Source: Candidatus Omnitrophota bacterium
GTDB lineage: Bacteria; Omnitrophota; Gorgyraeia; Zapsychrales; JANLHA01
Length of the DNA stretch: 32,000 nucleotides
Direction: 5' to 3'
NCBI GenBank assembly: GCA_963662715.1
Contig: OY759724.1
Coordinates: 240,001-272,000, forward strand
The position numbers and the translations under genes were made by a program. This document shows positions 4,939-26,233 of the stretch, one piece after another (the stretch's first letter is position 1; every line of letters starts with the position of its first letter). A model generated the notes under the pieces. That model was not told where the DNA came from. It did no database searches and saw nothing but the letters and a program-made list of their open reading frames with translations.

Positions 4939-4954
4939 AAGCTCCTTATGATTT

Positions 4955-5674: not shown

Positions 5675-5706
5675 GGTCGCCCCTCAATCCGGCAAAGGTC
5701 CGGTTA

Positions 5707-7047
5707 TTAGGTGAAGGCAAAAATACCTTTTTGTTTCAATAACATTTTAATCCCGACATTATGCACCAGGAGAGGCCAACGGTAAGGCCCGCTCCTTTTC
5801 GTTCTGTGAAGAATGGACCGTAAAGTCATCATCTGGGCTAAAAGTTCTTCTATGGCTGTCTGCAAAGACCTGCTGCCGGAAAAATTTTCATTCCGAATAA
5901 GGGCATAAGGGTTGTGTTTTTTCAGCCAGAACTTTTCATCCGTAAGCAGCCGCCGCCGCTTCAACGTCCGGTAAACCGGGGTCCCGGGGAAAGGATACAA
6001 GGGATTGAGCACAATCATCGGCACGGAATGTTCCGTTAAAAATCTTTTCGTCTGCACGAAAGTTTGTTCATCATCTTCCAGGAACCCCAGAATCATTCCC
6101 AAAACAAGAATGATCCTGTGCTTCTCCAGCCTCCTTAACACCGCCGAAAAATCCTGCGCCGTGTTGAATCCTTTATTAACCGAATTCAACGATTCGTCAT
6201 TAATGCTTTCCAGCCCCACAAAAACGGAATAGCAGCCAGAGCGGGATGCCGAGGCAACAAGCTCCTCGTCCTGACAGGATTGATAGGAAAAATATCCCGA
6301 CCAGTGAATACGGAGCGGCCGAAGGCTCTCGAATAAGCGCATGGCCCGGTCTTTTGACGTTGTCAAATTATCATCAACAAAAACAAAAAGCGGCTGCCTG
6401 ATCCCCGGATAATCTTTGAGGAAGCGTTTTATATCCTCAACGACCTCCTTTATGGGCCGGTACCGGATCCCCCCCCGGTAGACCTCAGGGGTACAGCAAT
6501 ACGCGCAATGATTCACGCAGCCCCGCGAAGTTTCTAAAGGAATTTTAGTCCCGTAAAAAGCGCTGTACAACTTCAAATTCAACAAATCAAAACGGGGGAA
6601 CGGCATCTGCTGCATGGAAAAACGTTCCGGAGAAAGATACCGCTGTTTCACGCAGCCGGATGCAAAATCGTTCCAGAACGCATCCCAGGAGGTTTCGATC
6701 TCTCCGCAGATGACCGCGTCGGCGAATCCGGCCGCCTCATCCGGACAGAGATTGACATGGTAACCGCCCAAGAGGACGAAGACACCCCTCTTCCTGAATT
6801 CCGCAGCCACCTCATACGCTCTTTGAGCCTGCGGTGTTTTAACGGAAATACCAACCAAATCATAAGGGACATCAAAATCAATATCCTGCAGGGTTTCATC
6901 AATAAGCGTGATATCCGCTTCCCGCGGGAAAAAAGAAGCCAAATACGGCAGGATGAAACTGGGGCACAAGCCTTTTTTGTGCCTCGACTTGTAAAGCCTG
7001 CCGGTTTGAAAATTATAATGTCCGGGCTGAACTAAAAGAATTTTCAT
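5707..7047 (-). CDS. B12-binding domain radical SAM protein (class B rSAM), paralog 3
   Basis: MKILLVQPGHYN..., LVGISVKTPQAQRAY, VLLGGYHVN, and cluster motif CVNHCAYC. The ATG at 7047 has AGGAAAC upstream and lies 10 nt after the stop of the preceding gene. The track's 7140 start would overlap that gene by 83 nt. Confidence 0.85.
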   Translation of the reverse strand: MKILLVQPGHYNFQTGRLYKSRHKKGLCPSFILPYLASFFPREADITLIDETLQDIDFDVPYDLVGISVKTPQAQRAYEVAAEFRKRGVFVLLGGYHVNLCPDEAAGFADAVICGEIETSWDAFWNDFASGCVKQRYLSPERFSMQQMPFPRFDLLNLKLYSAFYGTKIPLETSRGCVNHCAYCCTPEVYRGGIRYRPIKEVVEDIKRFLKDYPGIRQPLFVFVDDNLTTSKDRAMRLFESLRPLRIHWSGYFSYQSCQDEELVASASRSGCYSVFVGLESINDESLNSVNKGFNTAQDFSAVLRRLEKHRIILVLGMILGFLEDDEQTFVQTKRFLTEHSVPMIVLNPLYPFPGTPVYRTLKRRRLLTDEKFWLKKHNPYALIRNENFSGSRSLQTAIEELLAQMMTLRSILHRTKRSGPYRWPLLVHNVGIKMLLKQKGIFAFT

Positions 7048-7057
7048 CGTGTTTCCT

Positions 7058-8164
7058 TTACAATGTCGCCAGTTCAATATAAGGGATCCGTGAATCCAAA
7101 CCTTGAAAATCCCTGTCGCCGTCGGGCCAGCAGGCAACATAAACCCGGCTGCCTATCTTCAGGTTCGGGAATACGGCAACGGATTTATTCAAGGGGTCGT
7201 TTTCGTGCAATCCGATCATCATAAAATCATAACCCTTATTTAAGAATTCCCCAGCGGCCTCACGCAACAATGCTGTACTGACTTCTTGCCGGTCCTCTGT
7301 CACGGCAAGCCAGCTGACATAAAAATACCGGAAAGAGTCTCCCGCCCGGGGCCACACAGGATAGCCTTTCTGTTTCGCCCAGAAATTATAGAGCGGCCGG
7401 ATGAATTTCATCCTGCCCTGATATTGATGCACAACAATCTGTTTAAAACGGCTTTGATCCCAGCAGGCGCAGACGCCCAGGATCCGGTTGTTTTCTACGG
7501 CAATAAGAAAATTTTCGATCTTCAAATCCCGCAACAACGGCCCCGACGTTTTAAAATTTTCCTTATCAAAGAAGGGGAAAAACTGCTTGCGGGGTCCCTC
7601 CCGGCCCAGATAGGCCTCCACCTGGTCCAGCATGTCCGGGGAACCTTTGGTAATCTTTATCCCCGTCGGAGGAAGTTTCTTATGCGCCAGGGGGATAACA
7701 TAGGTATTCAGCTGACCGATATCATGATAATGCGGTAAGCCGGCCCGGCCGGAAACCAGGACCTCTTTGACGCGGGTGTTGTCGGCCATAATTGTGGTGA
7801 GATAAATCCGGGCGCGTTTATCTTCATGCAATTGCTTTAAGAAATGATACCCGCGGCCTAAAATCAGCCGGTTCCGGCAAGCCCGGCTGATACGCAAACT
7901 CCCCAAATATCCGACCCGGCTCAGTTTCCCGTTGACAAAGACTTCTCTGACTGAACGGCTGGCCAAACCGACAATCTTACCCGCCGCCTGATCCCGGACG
8001 ACAATCGTCTGATTCCATACCCCTTCCGTACAGGCAGCCTGAAAGTAATTCGGTTCGCGGGTGAAAAGCAGCGAGACCTCTCCCTCCATAGGGGACGCCT
8101 GAAGCAGAGCCCTGAGCTGGGCATCATCTTTCTCGCGAGCCAATTCAAAATGAAAACGGGCCAT
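7058..8164 (-). CDS. GNAT-family acyltransferase-like protein, apparently two-domain
   Basis: 368 aa. The N-terminus (ELAREKDDAQLRALL...IVGLASRSV...GYLGSLRISRACRNRLILGRGYHFL) fits a GNAT core with an R-x-x-G-x-G-like CoA loop. The C-terminal half looks like a second degenerate acyltransferase-type domain. Confidence 0.65.
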   Translation of the reverse strand: MARFHFELAREKDDAQLRALLQASPMEGEVSLLFTREPNYFQAACTEGVWNQTIVVRDQAAGKIVGLASRSVREVFVNGKLSRVGYLGSLRISRACRNRLILGRGYHFLKQLHEDKRARIYLTTIMADNTRVKEVLVSGRAGLPHYHDIGQLNTYVIPLAHKKLPPTGIKITKGSPDMLDQVEAYLGREGPRKQFFPFFDKENFKTSGPLLRDLKIENFLIAVENNRILGVCACWDQSRFKQIVVHQYQGRMKFIRPLYNFWAKQKGYPVWPRAGDSFRYFYVSWLAVTEDRQEVSTALLREAAGEFLNKGYDFMMIGLHENDPLNKSVAVFPNLKIGSRVYVACWPDGDRDFQGLDSRIPYIELATL

Positions 8165-8174
8165 AAAATTATCC

Positions 8175-9500
8175 CTAATTCAATCCTTTCCCCAAAGGCA
8201 GGCCCTGACGTTTGTCGACCTCTCTCCCGGAGAAAAAATTATATAAAATATAGTTCCATAACATAGAAACACCGTGACAGTTGCTGCGGGCGTCAAACCG
8301 TTGGGATATGGACCGGACAGAATAAAACTGCTGCCTGGCTCTCAGGCAGGCCCGGGAAAGATCCTCGGCCGACATTTTCCGGGGATGGAAAGCCACATCT
8401 CCGAATTTGTACCGAGGATCGAGCCACCAGTTGTCAGACAACAACCGTCCCTCAGACTTGAAATGACGATACAAAGGTGTCCCGGGAAACGGGACAAGGT
8501 GATTAAACGCCGCCAAAAACATTTTCTGCTTTATCGCAAACTCCAGCGTTTCTTGAACCGTATCCAGGGTGTCTTGATCATATCCGAAAACAAAAGTCCC
8601 GTAAATCACAATTCCGTGGTCCCGGAATCTCTGCAAAGCCTGCTCATAGGATCTGTATTGCAGGTTCCATTGTTTTCCCATTTGCGTCAAATTCTTCTGA
8701 TCCAACGACTCAAATCCCATTAAAACCCCCAGACAGCCGCTGGCTTTCATAAGAGTCAGCATACTCTCGTCATTCGCCATATCAATGCTCCCCTGGCTGA
8801 TCCACTTGATGTTCAACGGGATCAGGGCCTGAAAGAGCTGTTTCGCCCGCTGAGGATCACAGGTGATATTATCGTCGACAAAAAAGACGATGCTCTTACC
8901 TATCTGCCGGATCTCCTCAATGATTTCAGGGATGGGCCGGGGCCGGTATGTATGCCGGAAGAAACTGCTTACAGAACAAAACTGGCATGCATAAGGACAC
9001 CCCCTTGCCGATTCAATAAGCGTAACGGGAAGATACGTCTTCCGGTTAAAAATCGTTCTCTTGGCCCGGCATCCTTTCAGGACAGGGGCATCGTTCCTCT
9101 GATAAACGGTTCTCAATTGTTTGGCCCTGGCGTCTTCACAAATCTGTTCCCAGATGCCTTCGGCCTCGCCTATCAGAATGGCATCCGCATGCCGCCCTGC
9201 TTCCTGGGGAACGAGCGTCGGATGATATCCGCCCAGAACAACCGGAACGCCCCTTTGCCGGTATTCCCGGGCAATATGATAACTTCTTTTCGCCGTATAC
9301 GTTTCTACGTTGACGGCGACGAGATCCGTGGCCTCATCATAAGGGATGGGCTCAATCCTGTCATCGTAAAACCGGACCTCTATATCCTCAGGCGTTAATC
9401 CGGCCAACAGGGCTAAAGCCAGAGGCTCCATCTTCCATGACCTGACATACGGTTCATGATTTTTCCTGCCGACAGCAGGCATGATCAGAGTGATCTTCAT
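8175..9500 (-). CDS. B12-binding domain radical SAM protein (class B rSAM), paralog 2
   Basis: MKITLIMPAVG..., LVAVNVETYTAKRSY, VVLGGYHPT, and cluster motif CPYACQFC. The stop lies 10 nt before the next gene's ATG. Confidence 0.85.
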   Translation of the reverse strand: MKITLIMPAVGRKNHEPYVRSWKMEPLALALLAGLTPEDIEVRFYDDRIEPIPYDEATDLVAVNVETYTAKRSYHIAREYRQRGVPVVLGGYHPTLVPQEAGRHADAILIGEAEGIWEQICEDARAKQLRTVYQRNDAPVLKGCRAKRTIFNRKTYLPVTLIESARGCPYACQFCSVSSFFRHTYRPRPIPEIIEEIRQIGKSIVFFVDDNITCDPQRAKQLFQALIPLNIKWISQGSIDMANDESMLTLMKASGCLGVLMGFESLDQKNLTQMGKQWNLQYRSYEQALQRFRDHGIVIYGTFVFGYDQDTLDTVQETLEFAIKQKMFLAAFNHLVPFPGTPLYRHFKSEGRLLSDNWWLDPRYKFGDVAFHPRKMSAEDLSRACLRARQQFYSVRSISQRFDARSNCHGVSMLWNYILYNFFSGREVDKRQGLPLGKGLN

Positions 9501-9536
9501 AAATACAAGCCCTTTCCGGCTCGGGATATTGAAACA

Positions 9537-10874
9537 TCAGGACATCCTCCTGCCCGGAGATATTTTTATTTCTGCGGGGAAACGGTCCTGATCAACGGAT
9601 AAACGATGGATATACAGCCTGTAAGCCAGATTGCCGACGAATTTAACCATAAAGGACCGGTCCAGCCCGCTGACTCTTTTCCAAATGGAAGGATATTGAA
9701 AAGTCTTCCGGTAAGCCCAGCGAAACCCCTGGTCGAGTTCCTGCGGGCTCATCTGTGAGGGCTGAAAAACAACGTGCTGCGTATCATAATAGGACCAATG
9801 ATTGTGAAGGATCCGCCCCTCTTCCTTGAGTCTTTGATAGGCCCTTGTTCGGGGATACGGCGTGTAAACGGCGTATCGCGGGATGTCGATTTTCAGTTCA
9901 TTGACAGCGTCAACCGTATCCTTGAAAACATTCCGGTCGTCATGGTCAAAACCGAACACAAAGCATCCCTGCAGAATTATGCCTTTATCATGAATTTTCT
10001 TAACCAGGTCCGCGTAATTCTGCGGACGGTTAAAACCTTTTTTTATCCCATACAAGGCTCTTTGGGAAACCGACTCGAATCCGATCAATAAATAAATACA
10101 TCCGCTGCGGCTCATCAACTCAAGCAACTCGTCATCCTGGCCTATCTCCGTTGTACATAAGCCCCCCCAGACTTTTTTCAAAGGGGCGAGCGCTGTGAAA
10201 AGCTCCTTCGCGTAATCCCGGTCTTCCAGCAGACTCACATCATTAAAAGCAATCCTCCGGGCTTTGATCTGCCTGATTTCGTCAATCACTTCGTGAACAG
10301 GACGCGTGTTCCATCCGAAAGGAACCGCACTGACCGCGCAAAAGTCGCAGGACCGTCTGCATCCCCGGGTAGCGAAAACGGTATAGGGATTCATGTAGCC
10401 CCACTGTTTCTGCAAGTCTCTTCGTGGACAGGGCAGGCCGGAAAGATGCGAGTCGTGAGACTCATATACATCTTTGAGTTTTCCGCAAGAAAAATCCCGG
10501 AGCAATTGAGGCCATGTCTGTTCAGCAAAACCGAGCACAATACTGTGGGCATGCTGTCCCGCCTCCTGAGGCATCAGGGAAACATGGACCCCGCCCAAAA
10601 CAACCGTCGCGCCCCGCCGCCGGAAGTGGCCAGCAAGGGCATACGCTCTGACAGACGTGCCCGTCAGGCAGCTTATGCCGACCAGATCAAAATCCTGCTT
10701 CAGCGGGACAGCCTCAAGGCTTTCATCTATAATTGTGACCTCGGCATTCAATTCAGGAGGGACCAGCGCGGCTAATGTCGTAAGCGTCAACGGCGCTTCG
10801 CGAAAAGACACCGCATGTCCCCCTATATTCATTTTATGGATACCGGCATCCGGCATTATTAACAAAATTTTCAT
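9537..10874 (-). CDS. B12-binding domain radical SAM protein (class B rSAM), paralog 1
   Basis: MKILLIMPDAG..., LVGISCLTGTSVRAY, VVLGGVHVS, and cluster motif CRRSCDFC. The track start at 10880 is a TTG two codons upstream of the ATG at 10874. Confidence 0.85.
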   Translation of the reverse strand: MKILLIMPDAGIHKMNIGGHAVSFREAPLTLTTLAALVPPELNAEVTIIDESLEAVPLKQDFDLVGISCLTGTSVRAYALAGHFRRRGATVVLGGVHVSLMPQEAGQHAHSIVLGFAEQTWPQLLRDFSCGKLKDVYESHDSHLSGLPCPRRDLQKQWGYMNPYTVFATRGCRRSCDFCAVSAVPFGWNTRPVHEVIDEIRQIKARRIAFNDVSLLEDRDYAKELFTALAPLKKVWGGLCTTEIGQDDELLELMSRSGCIYLLIGFESVSQRALYGIKKGFNRPQNYADLVKKIHDKGIILQGCFVFGFDHDDRNVFKDTVDAVNELKIDIPRYAVYTPYPRTRAYQRLKEEGRILHNHWSYYDTQHVVFQPSQMSPQELDQGFRWAYRKTFQYPSIWKRVSGLDRSFMVKFVGNLAYRLYIHRLSVDQDRFPAEIKISPGRRMS

Positions 10875-10923
10875 AGGCAACTCTTGTCGATATCTGTTAT
10901 CCCAACGGGGTGAAATCTTATAA

Positions 10924-10951: not shown

Positions 10952-11425
10952 TCAGGCACTTTTAACTTCCGAAATCCATTTCATAAGCAGGGCATCAAAT
11001 GTCTTCTGCTCGGCTTTTGTCAACAGCGAACCCAGACGCCTCAGAACCTTCTGATACCCCGGCCAGACGCTGTCCAGCAGCCGGCCCCCTCTTTCGCTGA
11101 TTTTAATAATATTGGCTCTTCTGTCATTCTTGTTAGAGATACGATGCACCAGCTTCTCTTTTTCCAGCTTATCTAACAGCCGCGTCATATTCGACGGGGT
11201 AACAATCAAATGTTTGCTGATCTCCACCTGACTTATTCCACTGCTTCCTCCCTGATGCTTGATGGTCATTAAAACGTTGAATTTAGCCGGAGTCAGCTCA
11301 TAGGGCTTCAGGAAAGACGAGATTTCCCCGTTAATCAGATTATATAATAAGACAATACCGTATATGGCCTCTTCATGATACTTCCCCTGCCCGACTTCAA
11401 TACCAAACGACCTGAAATAGTCCAT
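10952..11425 (-). CDS. MarR-family transcriptional regulator
   Basis: Winged-helix region LTPAKFNVLMTIKHQ...ISQVEISKHLIVTPSNMTRLLDKLEKEKLVHRISNKNDRRANIIKISERG. The ATG at 11425 is 5 nt after AGGAGG; the track's GTG at 11431 overlaps that SD. Confidence 0.85.
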   Translation of the reverse strand: MDYFRSFGIEVGQGKYHEEAIYGIVLLYNLINGEISSFLKPYELTPAKFNVLMTIKHQGGSSGISQVEISKHLIVTPSNMTRLLDKLEKEKLVHRISNKNDRRANIIKISERGGRLLDSVWPGYQKVLRRLGSLLTKAEQKTFDALLMKWISEVKSA

Positions 11426-11445
11426 AGTCACCTCCTTTCGATATT

Positions 11446-12575: not shown

Positions 12576-12998
12576 TTACGGGGACTGTGATTCAAGCCAC
12601 TGCTGAATTTTCTCTTTAATATCATCCCTGACTTCCCGCACCTTATGAAGGATTTCTTCTTCTGAGCCGGTAAACTTTGAAGGGTCAGGGAAACTCCAAT
12701 GAAGCCTGTTGACATCCCCGGGAAAAACAGGGCACTGTTCCGCCGAGGCTTCATCGCACACCGTGATAACATAATCATAGCTCTTCTTCTGCCGCATCAG
12801 ATCTTCGACACCGCGCGTTTTTTTCCCCCGGATATCAAGGCCTTCTTCTTTCAGCGCTTCTACGACAAAGGGGTTCAATTCCCCGGGGGCCAGACCGGCG
12901 CTGTCCACATCGAAATGCTCCCCCCCGCATATCCGCAACAACTCCTCGGCCATCTGACTTCTGGCGGAATTATGAACACAGACGAATAAAACTTTCAT
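12576..12998 (-). CDS. arsC: arsenate reductase, LMW-PTPase / thioredoxin-coupled type
   Basis: MKVLFVCVHNSARSQMAE P-loop (C-x5-R-S) plus downstream Cys residues (VITVCDEASAEQCPVFPG), typical of the Staphylococcus/Bacillus-type ArsC family. Confidence 0.85.
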   Translation of the reverse strand: MKVLFVCVHNSARSQMAEELLRICGGEHFDVDSAGLAPGELNPFVVEALKEEGLDIRGKKTRGVEDLMRQKKSYDYVITVCDEASAEQCPVFPGDVNRLHWSFPDPSKFTGSEEEILHKVREVRDDIKEKIQQWLESQSP

Positions 12999-13014
12999 TT
13001 TTCATATGATAACA

Positions 13015-13971
13015 CTAAATAATTACGGATTGAAGGAAATTAAACATATAGCCGGTCAGGATAATGGCTGCCGCCGTGATACCGAAAAAAATCATAATCA
13101 AGGGTAATCTCATCGCCCGGCGAAGCATGATGGCTTCCGGCAGGCTCAAGGCGGCAATGGCCATCATGAAGGCCAATGCCGTTCCCAAAGGGATGCCTTT
13201 TTGGAACAAAACAACGGCGATCGGAACAATAGCCGCGCAGCTGCCATACATCGGCACGCCTAAGGCTGTTGCGATCGGGACCGAAAAAATACCGGTTTTC
13301 TGGATAATGCCCTGGACGGCTTCCTGCGGAACGTAATTGTGGATCAGGGCTCCTATGCCGACCCCGATCAAAACCCACATCCAAATCTTTCTTGTAATGG
13401 AAAGAGCCTCATGCCAGCCGTAGGCTATGCGGCTTAAAAGCGATGGATAACGGACCGGCTTCTGGACCTGCTGCCTGGCGATCATATCCGCAACAAGGTA
13501 CGAGTCCAAATCCATCTTACCTAAGACAGCTCCGGCAACGGTTCCGATCAGCAGCCCGCTTAATACGTAGAGGAATGTGATTTTCCAGCCGAAAAACCCC
13601 AGCATCAAAACAACCAGATATTCATTAATAATAGGAGAGGTAATGAGAAAAGAAAAAGTAACCCCGAGGGGAATACCCGCTTCTAAAAAACCGAGAAATA
13701 TCGGGATGGACGAACAGGAGCAAAATGGCGTCATGGCCCCAAAAGAAGCGGCCAGAATATTGCCCGACAGCGCCCTTTTTTTGATCCACCCCTTAATTTT
13801 CTCCTGTGACAAGAAAGAACGGAAAAAGCCCATAATAAATATCATTGAAAAAAGCAAAAAAATAATTTTAATAGAATCATAAATAAAAAAATGAACAGTC
13901 TTGCCCAAAGATGATTCCGGAGAGAGCCCCAGGAGCATATAAGCGAACCAGTCAGCAAATGTCAGCAGCAT
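13015..13971 (-). CDS. arsP: COG0701 / ArsP-type permease
   Basis: 318-aa polytopic membrane protein with the family signature [14 protein letters not shown] and a second half containing [12 protein letters not shown]. It lies between arsR and arsC. Confidence 0.75.
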
Positions 13972-15265: not shown

Positions 15266-15694
15266 CTAAAATTCTATCTGCGTTTGTCCTCGGTCTTCCC
15301 GGCCTTGATATTCGATGTATCGCTTTATCGATTCTTCGTCGGCTCCAACCGTTGACACAAAATACCCTGCTGACCATATCCCTGCCTTTTTCACATACAT
15401 CTTGTCTAAAAACTTATATCGCCGCCTCATCAGCTTTGCTGTGTTACTCTTAATCAGATTTACTGCATGACTTACAGCCATCTTCGGCGGAATTGATGCC
15501 AAAAGATGCATATGATCTAAATCTGTATTTACTTTTTCAATGATGATCTCAGGATACCGTCTCATCACTCCCAAAACGCATCTTTTGACATACTCCGCCG
15601 AACCCCATCGCAATATCTTTCGCCTATATCTTGTACAAATGACAATATGGTATCTGGCATAGTAAACTGTGTGTCCTTGCTTCAAATATCTCAT
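15266..15694 (-). CDS. tnpA: IS200/IS605-family Y1 (HUH) transposase
   Basis: 142 aa: YHIVICTRYRRKIL, HUH motif DHMHLL, and catalytic-Tyr region GYFVSTVG. Confidence 0.9.
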   Translation of the reverse strand: MRYLKQGHTVYYARYHIVICTRYRRKILRWGSAEYVKRCVLGVMRRYPEIIIEKVNTDLDHMHLLASIPPKMAVSHAVNLIKSNTAKLMRRRYKFLDKMYVKKAGIWSAGYFVSTVGADEESIKRYIEYQGREDRGQTQIEF

Positions 15695-15859: not shown

Positions 15860-16351
15860 TTATTCAACTTTGGTTTGCATATCCTCCAGAATCGCCTCTA
15901 GGTCATCTTCATGCTCAACTTCATCTTCCAGAATTTCCAGGATAAGATGATAAGTGATCGGATCCTTACCTTCCACCATTTCCAGGATCTTTTTATATAC
16001 AGCGATAGCGCACTGCTCCCCCTTGATATTCTGCTTCACCAGAGTTTTGGTGTTAGGATCCGTGGGGTCATCATAGCCGCAGCCTGACTCCTTGATCAAC
16101 TGTTCGGGGCTCAAAAGCGGAGAACCGCCTAACTGCAGAATACGTTCAGCCAGCATGTTGGCATGTTTCAACTCCTCATCAGCATGTTCCTGCAATTCTC
16201 CGGCAATAATGCCTCTCATACGTCCGACCGCGATTTTTGAACCTACCCAGTATTGGTAAACAGCCAGCCATTCATCGGCCAGGGCTTTATTCAAGACTTT
16301 TATAAGTTCGTTAACATCGACCCCGACGATTGCTCTTCCTTTTGTACCCAT
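15860..16351 (-). CDS. ferritin-like / Dps-like (DPSL-type) diiron protein
   Basis: Four-helix-bundle signature: ELQEHADEELKHANMLAERI ... EDEVEHEDDLEAIL (E-x-x-H pairs). The ATG at 16351 has GGAGG 8 nt upstream. The track's 16366 start adds 5 residues and includes that SD. Confidence 0.8.
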   Translation of the reverse strand: MGTKGRAIVGVDVNELIKVLNKALADEWLAVYQYWVGSKIAVGRMRGIIAGELQEHADEELKHANMLAERILQLGGSPLLSPEQLIKESGCGYDDPTDPNTKTLVKQNIKGEQCAIAVYKKILEMVEGKDPITYHLILEILEDEVEHEDDLEAILEDMQTKVE

Positions 16352-16407
16352 GGGATTAACCTCCATTCTTTATACAGGTTATACATGTTCCTCTTAATTA
16401 GATTTTA

Positions 16408-16599: not shown

Positions 16600-19500
16600 T
16601 TATTCTGCTAGCATAAGCTGCGCTTGGGCGGTTTCCTTTTTGCCGGCTTGATCCATAACAGATATCTGCACAGTCCATTCCCTGCCGCCTCTCAAATGTG
16701 ATTCATCAATACGCATAACCCAGTCATTCTGCGCCTGGCTTTTAAAAGGACCGCCGACCTTTTTAAACCGCTTGGCCTTTTTGCCCCTTCCCACACCTAT
16801 CGTAAACTCCTGAAACGGACCGCGCACGGTCGCAAAAACATCCACGTAATCGATCCTTCTCTTCCGCTCCTGTTTCTGTATCCTTAACTCATTAATCCTA
16901 ACAGTTATTAAACCTTCAGGAGCTGTTCTTAAGGCTTCTGAAGCATTTAATAAGCCGGCCCCGGACTGATCGTCCCAGCCGGGGGAATACATGTCAACGG
17001 CCGTGGCCGTGAGGATATCTTCAATCTGCTCGTTCGTAAAGGCAGGATTATGCGCCAGCATCAAAGAAGCGGTCGCAGCAACCATCGGGGAGGCAAAAGA
17101 CGTTCCCGATTGAGTATAATACAAAGCGTTGCTTCCTTTATACCGTCCTTTTTTAAATGAATCCACGGAACGCAACGAATACACGTCTTCCCCCGGGGCA
17201 AGTAACCCATTATTAGCCCCCCAGTTGGAAATTGGGCTTCTCTCCCCGTTCATATCCAAAGATCCTACCGGGAAAATCCCTTTGGCAGAAGCCGGGCCGT
17301 GTTCCGAGATATTCTCGTTCACATTGCCGCTGGCGACTGTTATAAACGCGCCTTGTTCATAGGCCGCATTGATGGCCGCCTGTTCCATTTCAGAAACACC
17401 GCGGTTCCCCAGGCTGATATTTATCACCCGGGCTCCGTGATTGACCGCATAACGGACCGCACGGTAAATATTAAGGCTTGTGGCCTCTCCCTCTTCGTCA
17501 GCAACTTTCAGAGGCATAATGACAGCCCCGGGATTAATGCCGGCTATCCCGATTTGGTTATCCGTTTTAGCCGCAATAATACCGGCCACAAATGTCCCGT
17601 GACCTTTACGGTCGGTCAAATCATTGCTATTATCGATGAAGTTCCATCCGTGCACGTCGTCCACATACCCGTTAAGGTCATCATCCCGACCGTTTCCGGG
17701 GATTTCATTCTCATTCGTCCAGATATATTCCGGGCCGTCGGGATGCGTCATATCCAATCCGGAGTCGATGACCGCGACCAGGACATTCTTCTCCTGCCCG
17801 TCAATAACATTCCAGGCCGAATCAGGATCCGACTTAGGCGTAAAGCCGATTACGGATAAACCCCATTGATTTTCAACATCTTTTTTCTTTCCCCCTCCCG
17901 ATATCTCTCCAAACCCCAAGTTCAAACCACCTTCCGGTTTACTGCCCCCGAATATCCCCAGGAGCTTTTTCTTTTTTGCCTTTTGGGGTCCCAGGAAAAA
18001 CGGATCATTGGGGGTCTCCAAAGAAACGGCCTGATTCTTTTTCTTCCTGCGCTGCTCCAATTCCGAAGGACGAGGTTCGACTATTTTGCTGACTAATGTA
18101 CTTACCGCCTGTTTTAATAGTCCCTGAGGAGCAACCTTTTGAATATATTCGACAATACTCTGGGCCTGGCCGGCTTTCTCCAAGGCTTCCAAAATCGCTG
18201 CCGGGTTATTCTTAAGCTCTTCCTGAGAAATATTCCTTGCCAGAGAACCATCAGCGCCAAAAACAGCAAGAGCATTCTCGCCATTTGTTTTCCCGCAGGC
18301 CAAAACAGGGCCGTCGACCTGAATCTGCCGGGACGCATCCTGCCCGTACTCAGCAGAACCTGCGCCCGTATCTCCGGATATTTCCGGAGGGGTCTTCCCA
18401 AAATTTCTAACAGTAAAGCCGCTGAAACAATCATCGGTGTAATGTCGTTTCTCTCCCAATCCCTCCGCAAGAAGGCCGGCCATATCCTCAAGGGTCCCGA
18501 CCGTAACCTTTCCGCCGGTCAAGGCAGCCAATTTTTCAATCTCTGCCAGTTCTTGAGCGTTGACTTTAGCTAAAGCCATAACTGATTTCGGCGAGAAATT
18601 TTTTAATGACACCGGATCAAAATCCTTATTTAAAACAAAACGTGGCAACAGCGTTTCTATAACTACGGCCGCATAGGTGGCCTTGAACTTTTTGATATCA
18701 AAACACAGATGACAATCTTCGCCGCGGGGGATACACATCTGGTCAAGAGAAGCCTCTTCCTTTCCTGCGCCGGGGTAGAGTGCCGGGGTAGGGGTTGCGA
18801 GGGGCATCTGCCGCGAAGGATATTTACACGTACCCGGACAGGGCCCGCTTCTTAAATGACGTTCCAGACAGGAATCCTGCTGCTGAAGCTTAGGCTCACA
18901 GGTATGGCAGAACACCCCGTGAACCATGGTCTCCTCGCATCTTTCTGTCTGCCTGCGACACGTCCCGGGGCATGGCCCCACATACATCTCGTATTCGTCA
19001 CATGCCTGATCAGCGAGTCTTTTAGGGATACACAGATGGCAGGATGCCTCATCGACATAAGTCTTCATGCATACTTCCGTAGCGGCATTACAGGCAGGAC
19101 AGGGGCCGGGCAACATGTCGCCCTTCTCACATTCGTTTTTGGCTTCCTTGGGAGCACGGCACTGGTAACAATACCCCTCGGCCACACAAAGATAAAGTTT
19201 TTGACAGTTTTCCTCCTTGCATAATCCGACTTTCCAGCCGTCATAACACTCGATTCCTTTTATTTTACACTCATGACACACAGCTTTTCCCACACTCCCG
19301 TCCACACAGTAATGGCCCTCATCGATCTTGCAAGAGCCGGGACAACTGCCGGGAAAAAGCTCGCATTCCGCGCAAACATCTTCCTGGTCATCCGTCCGTT
19401 CTTTACACTGATAACACGGGCCATCGATGGGAAGGCACATCTCTCCTTTCGCACATGTCCCGTCCAAACAAAGCCCCGGCACATAGCCGACCGGGCAGTT

Positions 19501-20388
19501 GACCGAAGGCCAGCATCTATGGCAGTTTTCCCCCTCGACGGAAAAATTATCACAATTTTCACCCGTTTTACACGAGCCAGGACACAGACCGGCAAACATA
19601 TCCTTTTTCTGGCACTTTGCGGCCTGCCCCTCTTTTATACACTCCCAGCACGGCTTATCAAAATCATCTGTTCTTCTGCGGACACACTTTCCTTTATCCT
19701 TACACACCGCCCAGCACGCGTCATAATCCCCCGGGTAGCCGAGGTCAGAACAGGTCTTTTTGGGGGCACAGGCATGGCAGGCCGCGCCGTCCACCGGGAT
19801 GTAGGAACACTTCTCCTTGGCCTTGCTACATGTCCCGGGACATGATCCCGGCAGCAGTTCACGCTGTCCGCATTTGGCTTTGTCTTCTTCCCCCTTTTTG
19901 ACGCATTTTTTACATTGAAGTCTATATCCCGGGGGGGTATAAGAAATACAGGCCATGTCCTTACGGTCGCAGGTACTGCAATGGGAACCGACATCATCAC
20001 CAAAGTCGTAACACGACTTGCCTTTATCCATCGAGAGACATTCGCAGCAATAGGTTCCGTCTTTTATAACAACCGTAGAACAGTACGTCCCGGACTCATA
20101 ACAGGAGGCTTTTTTCCCCTTGGCCTCACATTTTTCTTTCAGGGTTTTCCCTATACATTTGTCAGCCGCCTCATCACACTCCTGGCCGGATTCACAGGGG
20201 ATATCCAGCTTCTGATAACATTTCCCGTTAGCCGCACAAAATTCCGTCCCGTTACAAAACAGGCCGTCATCGCAGTCCGGATCATTCACACATTTTTCTT
20301 TGGACGCATGCTGATCCCCCCAGGAGTGGGCAGGACATAATAAAGAGGAAAAGAATACCAGGGATAATACCAGAAAGAATTTCTTCAC
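16600..20388 (-). CDS. secreted subtilisin-like (S8) serine protease with a long N-terminal array of Cys-rich modules
   Basis: GTG start with GGAGGG 7 nt upstream, and a signal peptide (MKKFFLVLSLVFFSSLLCPAHS). Residues ~33-563 are Cys-rich repeats. The S8 triad motifs are VAVIDSGLD (D875, nt 17764-17766), HGTFVAGIIAA (H930, nt 17599-17601) and SGTSFASPMVAA (S1096, nt 17101-17103). Confidence 0.85.
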   Translation of the reverse strand: MKKFFLVLSLVFFSSLLCPAHSWGDQHASKEKCVNDPDCDDGLFCNGTEFCAANGKCYQKLDIPCESGQECDEAADKCIGKTLKEKCEAKGKKASCYESGTYCSTVVIKDGTYCCECLSMDKGKSCYDFGDDVGSHCSTCDRKDMACISYTPPGYRLQCKKCVKKGEEDKAKCGQRELLPGSCPGTCSKAKEKCSYIPVDGAACHACAPKKTCSDLGYPGDYDACWAVCKDKGKCVRRRTDDFDKPCWECIKEGQAAKCQKKDMFAGLCPGSCKTGENCDNFSVEGENCHRCWPSVNCPVGYVPGLCLDGTCAKGEMCLPIDGPCYQCKERTDDQEDVCAECELFPGSCPGSCKIDEGHYCVDGSVGKAVCHECKIKGIECYDGWKVGLCKEENCQKLYLCVAEGYCYQCRAPKEAKNECEKGDMLPGPCPACNAATEVCMKTYVDEASCHLCIPKRLADQACDEYEMYVGPCPGTCRRQTERCEETMVHGVFCHTCEPKLQQQDSCLERHLRSGPCPGTCKYPSRQMPLATPTPALYPGAGKEEASLDQMCIPRGEDCHLCFDIKKFKATYAAVVIETLLPRFVLNKDFDPVSLKNFSPKSVMALAKVNAQELAEIEKLAALTGGKVTVGTLEDMAGLLAEGLGEKRHYTDDCFSGFTVRNFGKTPPEISGDTGAGSAEYGQDASRQIQVDGPVLACGKTNGENALAVFGADGSLARNISQEELKNNPAAILEALEKAGQAQSIVEYIQKVAPQGLLKQAVSTLVSKIVEPRPSELEQRRKKKNQAVSLETPNDPFFLGPQKAKKKKLLGIFGGSKPEGGLNLGFGEISGGGKKKDVENQWGLSVIGFTPKSDPDSAWNVIDGQEKNVLVAVIDSGLDMTHPDGPEYIWTNENEIPGNGRDDDLNGYVDDVHGWNFIDNSNDLTDRKGHGTFVAGIIAAKTDNQIGIAGINPGAVIMPLKVADEEGEATSLNIYRAVRYAVNHGARVINISLGNRGVSEMEQAAINAAYEQGAFITVASGNVNENISEHGPASAKGIFPVGSLDMNGERSPISNWGANNGLLAPGEDVYSLRSVDSFKKGRYKGSNALYYTQSGTSFASPMVAATASLMLAHNPAFTNEQIEDILTATAVDMYSPGWDDQSGAGLLNASEALRTAPEGLITVRINELRIQKQERKRRIDYVDVFATVRGPFQEFTIGVGRGKKAKRFKKVGGPFKSQAQNDWVMRIDESHLRGGREWTVQISVMDQAGKKETAQAQLMLAE

Positions 20389-22062: not shown

Positions 22063-23613
22063 TCAAGGCTCCTGCCCTGCCTGACTGAGACATTTCTGCA
22101 AATCATAAATTCTGATTTGATTCTCCCGGGGGTCGACATGCCGCCAAAAGCGGAGCGTTTTTCTTAAGGAAGGGTATGCATGTTCCTGCATAACCCTCTC
22201 AAACAAGCGATCGTTGAACGCCCGGAACGACGCCTGAGGCGGACACGTCCCTTCGACATAAGAAATTAATGTGGACGGCCTTTTCCCTTCGGAAATGGCC
22301 TGCTGCGCCAAAATCAATTTATGCGGGTCCGTTATGACAAACCGTATGCCCTGGCGAAGATAGTCTGCCAGCTGTTCTTCCTTCTGGTCATCAAGCAAGA
22401 TCAGAGGCCGGTGCGCTGTATACCCTGACAACATAACATGATTGGTCGCCAGAATGCCGGACTCGGGGGCATATTGCCCTAGCCAGTCCGCAGCCTTCCG
22501 GATGCCTCCCTGCCAGAGACTGACCTCCCTGAAAGTTTTATATCCGCCGGCCATCAGCGTCAATCCGAAAAAAATGATACAAATTTTTTTCCCGCGCGGG
22601 GACCTGACGGTTTCAAGCATATTGAAAAAAGCCGCGACAGCCGTTATGGAAAGAAACGGAAGAGCGGGAGAGATAACACGGGGAAATTTAAACACGGCAA
22701 CGGAGCTCAACCCCAGCTGAATAAGGATAAAGACGACAAACAAAAATGTCGGATACCGGCCTCTCAGGAAAAACAGGCTCAACAAGATCAGAACACCTAT
22801 CAAAATCCCGTCGTAGGAGGAGAGAAAATACCCGTAGGCGTAAAAGGCCCATGGATCAAAATGCCAGGAAGAGTATCTCTGCGCGTAGTACCGCAGCAAA
22901 CCAAAATAAGAAATGTCCGTAAAGGCATAAAGGCACATCTCAAACAGAGCCCACACAAAGCAGGCAGAAAGGCCGAACAGGGCCAAACGGCCGAGCATTT
23001 TCAGGAAAAAATTTTTCCCGGGACGCCAGTAATATCCTTCCATCATGATGATAAGAAGCAATACCGACGCCGTCCGGTAATGGATCAAAAAAGCGCACCC
23101 GAAGCTGAGTCCCGCAGCAAGCTGATAAAACAGCCCCTTTTTTATGCCTTCATAATATCCATAGACACTTAAAAGCACAAAAAATATAGCCCCGGCATCA
23201 GGGAGTATTAACCGGCAATAAAAAACATGATAGGACGACACCGCCAGAAGAAAAGCACTCAAAAGGCCGACAGCATGCGAACGGTAGAAGCTCTTCGCAA
23301 AAAAATAGACCGCGGCTATCGTCGCCAGGCCGCAACAGGCCGAAAGATATTTCCCGGCGAGAAAACAACTGGGGATGAAGATACGCAATGCTGCGATCAT
23401 AAGGATCCACAGCATTTTAAGGTCTATATAGCGAGGAGGCGCCAGCGATTTCAAACACCCCTTCTGAAGGGACAGCCTTAACTGGACGATACGGTTGGCG
23501 ACATGAGCCTCGTCAAAAAAAACAACACACTGTTCCGGCAATCCATAAAACCTGATAACAGCCCCCAGAAGAATAATAGCGATAAGCAAGAGTGATGGAA
23601 TATGTTTTTTCAT
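22063..23613 (-). CDS. polytopic membrane glycosyltransferase, GT-C / family 39 (ArnT/PMT-like)
   Basis: 516 aa with about 10 or more TM segments, an early loop with FFDEAH (acidic DE motif after TM1) and a C-terminal soluble domain. Assigned by architecture, not by a strict motif match. Confidence 0.6.
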   Translation of the reverse strand: MKKHIPSLLLIAIILLGAVIRFYGLPEQCVVFFDEAHVANRIVQLRLSLQKGCLKSLAPPRYIDLKMLWILMIAALRIFIPSCFLAGKYLSACCGLATIAAVYFFAKSFYRSHAVGLLSAFLLAVSSYHVFYCRLILPDAGAIFFVLLSVYGYYEGIKKGLFYQLAAGLSFGCAFLIHYRTASVLLLIIMMEGYYWRPGKNFFLKMLGRLALFGLSACFVWALFEMCLYAFTDISYFGLLRYYAQRYSSWHFDPWAFYAYGYFLSSYDGILIGVLILLSLFFLRGRYPTFLFVVFILIQLGLSSVAVFKFPRVISPALPFLSITAVAAFFNMLETVRSPRGKKICIIFFGLTLMAGGYKTFREVSLWQGGIRKAADWLGQYAPESGILATNHVMLSGYTAHRPLILLDDQKEEQLADYLRQGIRFVITDPHKLILAQQAISEGKRPSTLISYVEGTCPPQASFRAFNDRLFERVMQEHAYPSLRKTLRFWRHVDPRENQIRIYDLQKCLSQAGQEP

Positions 23614-24388: not shown

Positions 24389-25558
24389 CTATTCATCATC
24401 AATAAGGATCCTCTCCCCTGTGCCGGTAAAATTCCCGTTTTTAAATTCCCCCTCATATTTTTTCCCGTTGGCATAAGTAAAAACACCGTGGCCATGGAAC
24501 ATATTATTTCTAAATTCCCCCTCATAAGCATGCCCCCTGGCATACATAATTTTTCCTTTCCCGTGACACTTGCTCGCCTTGAAATCTCCTTCATACCGGC
24601 TGCCGTCCGCATAAAACAGCAAACCTTCCCCATCCAGTTCCTTTCCTTTCACTTCCCCTTTATATTTGCGCCCGTCAGAATAAAGGATCAAAACATTGCC
24701 AGAGAGCTCCCCGTCTTTAAACTCCCCTTCATAAACAGTCCCGTCCGGATAAGAAAGGCTCCCTTTCCCGGAGAAAGCGTTATGATAATAATTCCCCTTA
24801 TACGTCCTGCCGTCGTTAAATTCCGTCTTACCTTTCCCGGACAACTCTCCGTTTTTAAATTCACCCTCATATTTTGTCCCGTTGGCATAGATCAACGTCC
24901 CCTCACCGTTCATGACATTATTCTCAAAATTTCCCTCGTAGACATTGCCGTTGGGGAATTCACATTTCCCGGGGCCGTCCAAATTCCCTTTTCTGAAAAA
25001 TCCCGAGATGACCGTGCCGTTACTGTAGATGAATCTTCCTTTGCCGTAATAAAGGCCGTCTTTAAAATACCCGTCAAATTTATCCCCGCTGTTATAAGTT
25101 ATTTTTCCCTTGCCCTCAAATACGCCCTTCTTGAACCCCCCGACGTACTGATAAGACGGGGTTGTCATAACACCATAACCATCCATAAGATTTTTAAAGA
25201 AATCACCCTTATATTTCGTTCCGTTCGGGTGAAGGTACACGCCTTCCCCGTCAGCAAGTCCGTTTTTGTATTCCCCGACATACCTCTCGCCGTTATGGCG
25301 GGCATACGTCCCTTTCCCGTGCATAAGGCCGTTCTTGAACTGGCCTTCATATTTATCCCCGTTCTTCCAGACCAACGTCCCTGTGCCATGCAAAAGTCCG
25401 TTCATGAATTCGCCTTCGTAGACAGCGCTGTCTGGCAGGGTGACTGTTCCGTATCTTTTATCAACAATTTCCGGGGAAGCCGGACGCACGGCACAGAAAA
25501 AGAAAAAAACAATTAAAGCTTTAAGATAACAAGGCTTACAAAGCATGCACAACCTCAT
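24389..25558 (-). CDS. MORN-repeat protein with N-terminal signal/anchor
   Basis: Fifteen consecutive ~23-aa repeats of the Y-x-G-x-[FW]-x-x-G-x-x-x-G-x-G type (YEGEFKNGELSGKGK... and variants) between about nt 24410 and 25420. The N-terminus is hydrophobic (LKALIVFFFFCAV). Confidence 0.85.
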   Translation of the reverse strand: MRLCMLCKPCYLKALIVFFFFCAVRPASPEIVDKRYGTVTLPDSAVYEGEFMNGLLHGTGTLVWKNGDKYEGQFKNGLMHGKGTYARHNGERYVGEYKNGLADGEGVYLHPNGTKYKGDFFKNLMDGYGVMTTPSYQYVGGFKKGVFEGKGKITYNSGDKFDGYFKDGLYYGKGRFIYSNGTVISGFFRKGNLDGPGKCEFPNGNVYEGNFENNVMNGEGTLIYANGTKYEGEFKNGELSGKGKTEFNDGRTYKGNYYHNAFSGKGSLSYPDGTVYEGEFKDGELSGNVLILYSDGRKYKGEVKGKELDGEGLLFYADGSRYEGDFKASKCHGKGKIMYARGHAYEGEFRNNMFHGHGVFTYANGKKYEGEFKNGNFTGTGERILIDDE

Positions 25559-25660: not shown

Positions 25661-26233
25661 CTACATCAACAAATGAGAGAGCAGAATCCTGACTCCGATC
25701 AAGATGAGGATCGCCCCTCCGATAATTTCAATCTTCTCCTCAAACAGCTCTCCATATCTGCTGCCCAGAAAAATCCCGATGAAAGACATAATAAAAGTCA
25801 TTATCCCGATAACGATGGCGGGGAAAATAATCCAAACACGGAGAAAGGCAAAACTGAGCCCCACAGCCAGAGCATCCATGCTGGTCGCGACGGATAATCC
25901 GAGCAATATAAATCCTGTCATTGCTTTTTCCGCCCGTTCAACGCGTTCAATTCTTACCGCTTCGTATATCATTTTTATACCGATAGCGACAAGCAGGCCA
26001 AAGGCAATCCAATGGTCAATATTCAGGATAAGGGAACGGAATGTGTGTCCCGCCCCCCAGCCGATCACGGGCATGACCATCTGAAAACCGCCGAACATCA
26101 CGCCGAACGTCAATGCTTTTTTAACCTTCTGTCTTTTTATAATCACGCCGGAAGCAATAGAAACGGCAAACGCATCCATGGCCAAACCCAAGGCGATGAA
26201 TAAAACAGAAGCTATGTCCATTTGAACGGGCAT
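25661..26233 (-). CDS. mntP: manganese efflux pump MntP (DUF204 family)
   Basis: 190 aa with two internal repeats, each carrying the MDAFAVS / MDALAVG motif, and six TM segments. Confidence 0.85.
   Translation of the reverse strand: MPVQMDIASVLFIALGLAMDAFAVSIASGVIIKRQKVKKALTFGVMFGGFQMVMPVIGWGAGHTFRSLILNIDHWIAFGLLVAIGIKMIYEAVRIERVERAEKAMTGFILLGLSVATSMDALAVGLSFAFLRVWIIFPAIVIGIMTFIMSFIGIFLGSRYGELFEEKIEIIGGAILILIGVRILLSHLLM

Follow-up and report, generated by a model that had tools for sequence, protein, structure and literature searches.

A six-cysteine module array at the N-terminus of a predicted secreted S8 protease from a Candidatus Omnitrophota bacterium

Subtilases fused to tandem small cysteine-rich repeats of variable number are known from eukaryotic convertases such as PC5/6, PACE4, and furin, in which the repeats serve to anchor the enzyme at the cell surface or in the matrix. 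A protein of likewise composite design is encoded in a stretch of 32,000 nucleotides (nt) from a Candidatus Omnitrophota bacterium (assembly GCA_963662715.1, contig OY759724.1, positions 240,001 to 272,000), the whole of which is referred to below as the window. It is an S8 peptidase of 1262 amino acids (aa), encoded at 16600-20388 on the minus strand, in which aa 33-562 form an array of twelve small cysteine-rich units. The likeness to the eukaryotic convertases would be convergent at most: the repeats of the PC5/6 type are C-terminal, follow a P-domain and have another cysteine pattern, unlike the N-terminal array of the window protein; the furin-like and growth-factor-receptor repeat models of Pfam do not match the window protein at E<=1; and its catalytic domain is nearest to bacterial mycosin-like S8 enzymes and not to kexins. 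With the mycosins, in turn, the likeness is confined to the catalytic domain; the window protein has neither a C-terminal membrane anchor nor an ESX context. The mycosin model TIGR03921 is the top NCBIfam match, with a score of 186.3 bits that lies under its cut-off (278.75) and leaves the protein outside this equivalog.

The closest proteins are S8 peptidases of an Omnitrophota lineage (P0007, P0042, P0070, and P0078; P0007 comes from a Candidatus Omnitrophica metagenome-assembled genome and is named S8 family serine peptidase). Their mid-domain, linker, S8 domain, and C-terminal domain align with those of the window protein end to end, with 39-52% identity, and the same six-cysteine modules stand directly upstream of the mid-domain. 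Typical members of this lineage carry one to three modules, in many cases preceded by a FecR domain or an acidic, EF-hand-like region, whereas the window protein has eleven modules plus an eight-cysteine unit and lacks the EF-hand-like and FecR regions as well as the long-loop (26-aa) Y-type module. In the literature on Omnitrophota proteases, subtilases, and cysteine-rich proteins (open-access papers and bioRxiv), the family is not described. At the level of the single module, EGF-like domains, knottins, and other small six-cysteine domains are alike in size (~30-38 aa), number of cysteines, a beta-hairpin core (as predicted for the window modules), and tandem use in secreted proteins; compared with EGF, however, the window modules end in C-x2-C and lack the C-x-C hallmark. 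The eight-cysteine unit at aa 33-78 has the same pattern as a Planctomycetota-type repeat, to which the six-cysteine modules from aa 173 on are unrelated in spacing and sequence.

Architecture of the protein and of its array

The open reading frame (ORF) has a GTG start and is the sole long ORF at its coordinates. An identical 1262-aa protein is present in public databases (P0141); the window protein forms a 90%-identity cluster with a single member and is its own representative in a 50%-identity library. From the N- to the C-terminus it consists of a signal peptide, the cysteine-rich array, a mid-domain, a Lys/Gly-rich linker, the S8 domain, and a C-terminal domain (Table 1). A previous sequence-only reading of the window had called a 1262-aa subtilase with a complete S8 domain at this position, and the full-length match to the Pfam model and the catalytic triad, i.e., D875 (VIDSG), H930 (HGT), and S1097 (GTSFASP), bear this out. 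Peptidase_S8 is the one Pfam domain detected across the whole protein, and aa 1-866 have no Pfam or NCBIfam match at E<=1. The same reading mapped the cysteine-rich region correctly (nt 18700-20292 correspond to aa 33-563) but overcounted its cysteines: instead of at least 80 there are 75 in this region and 78 in the whole protein, the remaining three being one in the signal peptide and two further downstream.

Cleavage by signal peptidase I is likely after AHS, a site read from the sequence without a predictor. The signal peptide has a non-canonical lipobox (SLLC), and the homologues likewise begin with signal-peptide-like sequences. Inspection of the whole sequence revealed no twin-arginine motif, no hydrophobic segment beyond the signal peptide, and no C-terminal sorting signal or anchor. 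The CxxCH motif of c-type cytochromes is also absent from the whole protein, the motif present being C-H-x-C.

When the N-terminal region is cut after each module-ending C-x-x-C, the array resolves into one eight-cysteine unit and eleven six-cysteine modules of ~30-38 aa, separated by linkers of 5-10 residues. Every module so delimited has exactly six cysteines, with the exception of A3, which has one extra and makes the total of the array odd (75). The shared framework is C-x8-11-C-x2-4-C-x5-7-C-x5-11-C-x2-C. From aa 173 on, the sequence-only reading had described two module types in the order A-B-A-B-A-B-A-A, followed by a degenerate A copy with an insert; all of them are found in that order at aa 173-562, and the B modules end, as it had stated, in C-[YW]-[QE]-C (CWEC, CYQC, and CYQC). 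Its labels are kept here. What it overlooked lies upstream: the eight-cysteine unit (aa 33-78) and two more six-cysteine modules, m1 (aa 87-117) and m2 (aa 126-162). The former has no significant match to the subtype hidden Markov models (HMMs) described below and is assigned to the family by position and cysteine count only. The latter is marginal with the mid-loop subtype HMMs (7.2 bits, E=0.004), and variants of its type, with two CxxC, predominate in the arrays of P0110 and P0078.

Table 1. Features of the window protein and location of the partner-family genes of its homologues. Coordinates are those of the window, except for the partner genes, which are given by locus; pLDDT, predicted local distance difference test.
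Feature	Residues	Coordinates	Strand	Remarks
Signal peptide (MKKFFLVLSLVFFSSLLCPAHS)	1-22	20323..20388	-	two Lys, hydrophobic core, A-x-S site, by eye
Eight-cysteine unit (CVNDPDCDDGLFCNGTEFC...CDEAADKC)	33-78	20155..20292	-	one copy of the CxxDxDCDDGxFCNGxExC repeat
m1, degenerate six-cysteine module	87-117	20038..20130	-	ends in CCEC; spacing 8,6,10,0,1
m2, six-cysteine module	126-162	19903..20013	-	C-x10-CxxC-x6-C-x11-CxxC (two CxxC)
A1, mid-loop, C5-His	173-207	19768..19872	-	midH HMM 24.0 bits, E=2e-8
B1, mid-loop, aromatic after C5	213-250	19639..19752	-	ends in CWEC; midY HMM 29.2 bits, E=5.5e-10
A2	259-292	19513..19614	-	midH HMM 25.3 bits, E=8e-9
B2, short C4-C5 loop	298-328	19405..19497	-	ends in CYQC; short HMM 38.9 bits, E=4e-13
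A3, seven cysteines (extra C342)	339-374	19267..19374	-	midH HMM 15.4 bits, E=1e-5
B3, short subtype	381-410	19159..19248	-	ends in CYQC; short HMM 26.2 bits, E=4e-9
A4, CPAC in place of CPGxC	420-453	19030..19131	-	spacing 9,2,6,9,2; midH HMM 21.3 bits, E=1.5e-7
A5	463-497	18898..19002	-	midH HMM 25.5 bits, E=7e-9
A6, Pro-rich insert (30 aa) in the C3-C4 loop	507-562	18703..18870	-	spacing 9,3,30,6,2; best match short HMM, 23.9 bits, E=2e-8
Mid-domain	564-~790	18019..18699	-	begins with a hydrophobic strand (AAVVIETLLPRFVL); conserved C654 and C698
Lys/Gly-rich linker	~791-860	17809..18018	-	10 K/R and 13 G in 70 aa; pLDDT 51-60 where modelled
Peptidase S8	867-1145	16954..17790	-	PF00082 178.1 bits, E=3e-52, cut-off 21.8, profile 2-288/288
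C-terminal domain	1146-1262	16603..16953	-	family-conserved; homologue alignments reach the last residues
Partner gene of P0138		L004:2424-5975
Partner gene of P0040		L005:1194-5969
Partner gene of P0135		L007:30-7001
Partner gene of P0070		L008:208-6873

The six-cysteine module and its relatives

The periodicity of the array, which the sequence-only reading had pointed out, holds against chance. When aa 79-563 were shuffled 20,000 times with their composition preserved, the six-cysteine framework was matched 0.26 times on average and 4 times at most, versus nine non-overlapping matches in the real sequence (~35-fold enrichment), a count that no shuffle reached. Two shorter motifs behave alike: C[HYWF]xC is found nine times (shuffle mean 0.78) and GxCPx(1-2)C six times (shuffle mean 0.10). 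Outside the cysteine columns the A modules are only 21-36% identical to each other, and the DNA-level repeats in the array do not exceed 26 nt and fall on the codons of G-x-C-P-G-x-C. This low identity, together with the shortness of the DNA repeats, argues that the array is old and has been kept by selection, and that it is neither a recent duplication nor an assembly artefact.

The relation between the modules was addressed with four subtype HMMs, built exclusively from modules of proteins other than the window protein and sorted by the length of the C4-C5 loop and the residue that follows C5. These models recognise nine of the eleven six-cysteine modules, with E between 1e-5 and 4e-13. A1-A5 fall into the mid-loop/His subtype (midH; 15-25 bits, E 1e-5 to 7e-9), B2, B3, and A6 into a short-loop subtype also present in P0007, P0008, P0012, P0014, P0017, P0127, P0129, P0137, P0138, and P0139, and B1 into a mid-loop subtype with an aromatic residue after C5 (midY). 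B3 is strongly similar to CFDGWSLGTCQANSCPEGQICISEGQCHQC of P0012. On the short HMM, which recognises B2 and B3, B1 scores only 7.5 bits, and its non-cysteine identity to these two modules is 8-9%. By these scores the modules of the window represent three subtypes of one family. The alternation described in the sequence-only reading is therefore real, while its two module types become a single six-cysteine framework with three subtypes, in which B1 stands apart from B2 and B3. Similarly, the last A copy does contain the Pro-rich insert that had been noted, but is nearer to B2 and B3 than to A1-A5 (4.1 bits only on the midH HMM).

A common origin of A and B2/B3 is indicated by the cross-scores between subtypes, which are significant (12-19 bits, E 1e-6 to 9e-5): the short-loop HMM gives 19 bits for A1 and A2, and the mid-loop/His HMM 16 bits for B2 and 12 bits for B3, so that A and B2/B3 are variants of a single domain related by descent. 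When HMMs were built from the A-only or B-only copies of the window itself, they gave no cross-detection, and a comparison of pooled H-type and Y-type alignments by hhalign reached a probability of 49% only; the subtype-HMM cross-scores are preferred here to the pooled comparison as evidence of shared ancestry. One simple origin of the array, the amplification of the canonical pair of an H-type and a long-loop Y-type module, was rejected: B2 and B3 obtain only 1-2 bits on the long-loop Tyr HMM (2.2 bits for B2), versus 26-39 bits on the short one, and B1 belongs to a third subtype. The amplification of a short multi-module cassette may cautiously be proposed instead. Relatives retain mixed cassettes beside the mid-domain, and P0138 shows a similar alternation (H-Y-H-Y).

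The modules do not correspond to any known family in the collections searched, in agreement with the sequence-only reading, which had been unable to name one and had mentioned EGF-like, Dickkopf-like, and myxococcal repeats as families to be compared. Pfam and NCBIfam gave no match to the six-cysteine modules at E<=1, and a PDB sequence search with aa 172-500 returned 0 matches at E<=10. The Myxococcus cysteine-rich repeat (TIGR02232) and Dickkopf (PF04706) models are absent at E<=1 from the whole protein and from aa 33-162; no EGF model of Pfam appears at E<=1, and the module spacing has no C-x-C. As for zinc ribbons and knuckles, there is no Pfam match, most of the window modules have a C2-C3 spacing of 3, within a family-wide range of 2 to 5, and C5xxC6 lies within a strand of the predicted structure.

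This structure is an AlphaFold2 model of A2 plus B2, calculated with a 28-row alignment of module pairs (mean pLDDT 84, predicted template modelling score 0.60, no residue below 50). In each module, the model places a beta-hairpin (strands 22-29/32-39 and 61-66/70-75, respectively) behind an N-terminal segment of irregular structure. If the strand registry is read from the secondary-structure string, C4 would be directly opposite C6 in both modules, and C5 and C6, which stand on the same strand at a distance of three residues, would point to opposite faces. A Foldseek search of the model against PDB found nothing at E<=0.001, the best match having E=0.49. The weak neighbours, all of them small disulfide-rich extracellular domains with a template modelling (TM) score <=0.32, include the double inhibitor cystine knot toxin 7rz3 (E=0.49), the EGF-like Pvs25 (1z1y), MIT1 (1imt), the EGF domain of uromodulin (7pfp), and follistatin; EGF-like entries lie at E=0.85-5.7 and TM 0.25-0.28, values to be read with the weakness of Foldseek for two-module models of this small size in mind. 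In fold class, the predicted module looks like a small disulfide-rich extracellular domain that is not assigned to a known family.

The array only seemed to be an orphan. A word-indexed search of 5.8 billion sequences with aa 33-569 returned six weak matches, all to aa 33-78, and the relatives of the six-cysteine modules came to light in the N-termini of proteins retrieved with aa 564-1262. That region finds 1,441 proteins at E<=1e-20, of which the named ones are almost all from Omnitrophota; the best relatives cover 97-100% of it, are about 1000-1100 aa long and, where named, are called Candidatus Omnitrophica or Omnitrophota S8 peptidases. The full-length relatives with a mid-domain usually have 7-18 N-terminal cysteines and 1-4 CxxC, equivalent to one to three modules. 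A scan with the framework detected 128 six-cysteine units in 57 of the 121 proteins examined, mostly in one to three copies each, and the uniqueness that the sequence-only reading had implied is thus lost. The residue after C5 is H in 57, Y in 51, F in 16, and W in one of them (125/128 modules). In most relatives a single His-type unit comes first and then a single Tyr/Phe-type unit, whose C4-C5 loop is 26 residues long. An alignment of the window pairs A1+B1, A2+B2, and A3+B3 with 25 pairs of this layout from relatives contains 11 invariant columns. All six cysteines are in register in 191 of the 212 modules that the HMMs detect in relatives, the remainder being misaligned or truncated; paired cysteine losses, from which disulfide partners might be deduced, were sought in them, and no module had truly lost a cysteine.

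Modules were also searched for exhaustively with HMMER among 1.84 billion cluster representatives, using a profile of the alignment of H and long-loop Y pairs. This yielded at least 24 proteins at E<=0.001, the window protein among them; since the profile found the latter only at E=3.7e-4, the figure is a lower bound. Expanded arrays are present in P0012, P0078, P0110, P0127, P0128, P0135, P0138, and P0139, with, for instance, 15 units in P0127, 18 in P0128, 14 in P0138 (in an H-Y-H-Y pattern), 14 in P0139, and nine in P0135, and several of them have expanded independently. With regard to the two features whose conservation the sequence-only reading had left to be checked in homologues, the fusion to the protease is kept, given that each full-length array-bearing protein from the profile search also has the mid-domain and S8; the A/B alternation has a similar counterpart in P0138, while most relatives have only one His-type and then one Tyr/Phe-type unit. 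P0139 ends within the mid-domain. P0128 (1404 aa, 124 cysteines, 18 six-cysteine units, and a tail rich in Pro, Ser, and Glu) has no detectable S8 or mid-domain, and may be either a truncated gene model or the only array protein found here without a protease. Conversely, relatives without modules and mid-domain (FecR-fused, Plug-fused, and short forms) keep the same S8 domain. Many relatives (e.g., P0009, P0015, P0060, P0134, and P0138) have two further features upstream of the cassette, both missing from the window protein: a conserved acidic region, in which a DxDxDGxIS motif resembles an EF-hand (weak match in Pfam), and a lone CWxC. A scan of a genome collection for close loci returned solely a distant S8 from Tenacibaculum.

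The eight-cysteine unit, in turn, matches P0001-P0006 with 32-57% identity (E 5.5e-6 to 2.5e-3) and shares their motif; these are multi-repeat proteins made of tandem CxxDxDCDDGxFCNGxExC...CDExxDxC eight-cysteine repeats, one of them annotated as Planctomycetota. Pfam and NCBIfam have no model that covers this repeat, and the shared motif places the unit in a widespread, if uncurated, repeat family. P0012, another array-bearing protease, carries one copy too.

Possible roles of the array

The reading considered probable here, though far from certain, is that of a Sec-exported S8 protease with a disulfide-stabilised extracellular array that serves as stalk or targeting region and was amplified from a short cassette. 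The protein would be exported by Sec, with cleavage of the signal peptide, and its N-terminal 530 residues would be a non-catalytic, beads-on-a-string stalk of twelve modules. Each six-cysteine unit would be a compact knot, probably with three disulfides, in which an irregular loop packs on the hairpin that bears C4, C5, and C6. The array itself would have arisen by old tandem amplification of a cassette of one to three modules sited just upstream of the mid-domain, and its copy number varies between lineages in the manner known from surface-protein stalks. Rigid and resistant to proteases, the array could act as a spacer and targeting region that holds or directs the catalytic domain away from the producing cell, e.g., on a substrate or on the surface of another cell. 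The likening of this role to that of the cysteine-rich repeats of PC5/6 and PACE4 is an analogy.

Several observations weigh against this interpretation. The 75 cysteines of the array are an odd number, which leaves at least one unpaired; the His after C5 is invariant in 34 aligned H-type modules, stricter than packing needs; and many Omnitrophota may be anaerobes. In addition, the protein has neither an anchor nor a sorting signal, no binding partner for it came to light, and the gene neighbourhood in the window offers no functional hint.

Some of these points would suit modules that bind metal, most likely structural zinc acquired after export, in an array that is metal-stabilised or metal-sensing. 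The ligands would be C2/C3 together with C5/C6, or cysteines together with the conserved His. The conservation of all six cysteines and the invariance of the His after C5 in H-type modules are compatible with this; the canonical H-type modules of relatives have still more conserved His residues (CDSHAC, VEH), and the variant represented by m2 and P0110 has two CxxC, as in a zinc ribbon. Disulfides are perhaps harder to keep in an anaerobe, and genes for Dps, MntP, a Fur-family regulator, and a peroxiredoxin are near in the window, which is a matter of proximity and no more. However, a C2-C3 spacing that varies from 2 to 5 among homologous modules is poorly tolerated by knuckle geometry, C5-x-x-C6 is predicted to lie in a regular beta-strand and not in a turn, with oppositely directed side chains, and the position of the His is taken by Tyr, Phe, or Trp in about half of the modules, an interchange that would fit aromatic packing better than a metal ligand. 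Zinc-ribbon, rubredoxin, and other metal-site families give no match at E<=1 in Pfam or NCBIfam, and a signal of the Sec and not the Tat type argues against pre-assembled Fe-S-like cofactors, though not against zinc. Because of the variable spacing, the interchangeable residue after C5, the location of C5xxC6 inside a strand, and the Sec-type signal, the balance between disulfide knots and metal (Zn/Fe) sites, which the sequence-only reading had offered as alternatives, leans towards disulfides, and metal binding is regarded as unlikely.

Slightly less likely still is a removable pro-region made up of the array, with or without the mid-domain, i.e., an intramolecular chaperone or a tandem inhibitor that acts until autoprocessing, like I9 propeptides or the inhibitor repeats of the Kazal and antistasin types. 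S8 proteases normally require an N-terminal propeptide, and Pfam detects no subtilisin I9 propeptide in the window protein; everything upstream of PNDPFF...QWGL is non-catalytic. Many small six-cysteine domains are protease inhibitors, follistatin/Kazal-like folds are among the weak Foldseek neighbours of the module, and a serpin gene lies ~5.5 kb upstream of one homologue. The linker separates PNDPFF from QWGL and holds a family-conserved basic sequence, KKKKLLGI (consensus PNDPLY...KKKKK..G), which could be an autoprocessing site or a site of interaction. On the other hand, the number of modules ranges from 1 to about 18 among orthologues, which is unexpected for a stoichiometric chaperone or inhibitor, relatives devoid of modules and mid-domain keep the same S8, and inhibitor families give no match. 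Moreover, it is the mid-domain and not the array that always adjoins the linker, which makes it the better candidate for a pro-domain.

The mid-domain is conserved in the family and found in all 57 homologues aligned over >=180 residues, and an alignment of 30 homologues shows CF, GP..ACG, and further columns to be invariant. Its AlphaFold model reaches a mean pLDDT of 70 and comprises a beta-beta-beta-alpha core, with values above 90 (model positions 130-190), as well as another element, of the beta-alpha-alpha type; the model has no fold match in PDB (best E=0.46), and the domain has no match in Pfam. The sequence-only reading, which let a Lys-rich linker follow the array directly, was correct about the existence of such a linker, as aa ~791-860 are rich in Lys and Gly and of low predicted confidence, but not about its position, given that the mid-domain intervenes. 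PNDPxF and QWGL usually adjoin at the start of the mature S8 domain; here they are parted by a Lys/Gly-rich insert of ~40 aa that bears KKKKLLGI. At the other end of the protein, aa 1146-1262 have no Pfam match.

Two further proposals involve a second protein. In four of seven homologue loci, a large gene lies directly upstream of the protease gene on the same strand, at distances from overlap to 127 nt, and its products belong to one family (1183-2323 aa, 30-54% mutual identity, and no Pfam domain). In each of these partner proteins, three six-cysteine units terminated by C-[FYTI]-x-C and an incomplete fourth are accompanied by an extended helical middle part. The C-terminal domain (~280 aa) is conserved, and its motifs KPMSSKAKTAK, HGDYDLHG, and QHGGQDDWVPDP may faintly resemble those of EF/CyaA/ExoY nucleotidyl cyclase toxins. 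The top Pfam match of this domain is PF03497 at E=0.19 only, and it has no PDB sequence match. The broader of the two proposals, which must be called doubtful, sees the six-cysteine unit as a new extracellular superfamily restricted to Omnitrophota, a surface-binding or docking stalk shared by the S8 protease and, after divergence, by the upstream partner; the length of the array would be tuned by amplification so as to reach or recognise the envelope of host or prey. More improbable is the narrower one, in which the modules are a docking device that pairs the protease with this second secreted six-cysteine protein in an effector complex against other cells. It draws on the linkage and layout just described and on the predatory or parasitic lifestyle proposed for Omnitrophota (PMC10066038; 10.1101/2023.11.21.568195). 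It also draws on one locus (L005:1-1197), in which the pair comes directly after PilM, PilO, and a 138-aa protein weakly similar to T2SS-C/T2SS-B, a context suggestive of a connection with a type IV pilus or a type II secretion-like apparatus. Nevertheless, the HMMs of the protease modules score <=7 bits on the partner units, so that the likeness is one of framework only; the partner is missing at three of the seven loci, and the window has no homologue of it (tblastn E>=2).

Finally, a compositional artefact or a mis-assembled repeat, for which only the high cysteine content speaks, is hardly credible when no shuffle reaches the observed count, independent HMMs from outside the window recognise the modules, the cysteine columns do not vary within the family, the divergence between the DNA copies is too great for collapse or expansion during assembly, and an identical protein is on record.

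Gene neighbourhood and meaning of the module

Within the window, the protease gene has no conserved or functionally linked partner. Upstream of it are genes for PPK2, an AHSA1-like protein, a PMT-like glycosyltransferase (22063-23613), and a MORN-repeat protein, and downstream those for a Dps-like ferritin and an IS200 transposase; MntP, a peroxiredoxin, a Fur-family regulator, and a cluster of B12-radical-SAM and GH3 genes are farther off. The transposase, of the IS200/Y1 type (15266-15694, minus strand), lies ~900 bp downstream of the protease gene, just past the ferritin gene. Genes related to metals and oxidative stress are scattered at 15860-16366, 25661-26233, 26470-27183, and 27317-27787 (Dps-like ferritin, MntP manganese exporter, 1-Cys-type peroxiredoxin, and Fur-family regulator). 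The best matches of the peroxiredoxin, where they bear a name, are mostly from Omnitrophota, which agrees with the phylum given for the window. The cluster at 1866-10880 (minus strand) comprises a GH3-family adenylating enzyme, four B12-binding radical SAM proteins, and two ORFs with no Pfam match, all co-directional, and could serve the modification of lipids or natural products; a MarR regulator is found at 10952-11431. At 12576-13971 (minus strand), an ArsP-type permease beside a low-molecular-weight phosphatase/ArsC-like gene is probably an arsenic-resistance pair. The MORN-repeat protein (24389-25558, minus strand; 389 aa) consists almost entirely of these repeats (237 bits), which are, to our knowledge, uncommon in bacteria. 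At the homologous loci of P0012 (L002:3521-5606) and P0138 (L004:10885-14738), the protease is followed by a YceI-family gene and then by a TPR-rich protein, and PMT-family glycosyltransferases are encoded near P0012, as in the window.

Regarding what is new, the enzyme class and the design of a subtilase with tandem repeats were already known, secreted subtilases of several domains being common, and the family was already in the databases under generic names; the novelty lies in a compact six-cysteine accessory domain with no counterpart in Pfam, NCBIfam, or PDB. In the searches run here, this module is confined to proteases of a mostly Omnitrophota lineage, with copy numbers between 1 and about 18. 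As a new domain-family entry it is a solid candidate, one that does not overturn current understanding, and the upstream partner family may extend the finding to an effector pair. A definition of the module would annotate a blank stretch in hundreds of metagenomic proteins and would make available a scaffold that is small, represents a new fold class, and is probably very stable. For the biology of the ultra-small and possibly predatory Omnitrophota, it would give a handle on how these bacteria present hydrolytic enzymes extracellularly.

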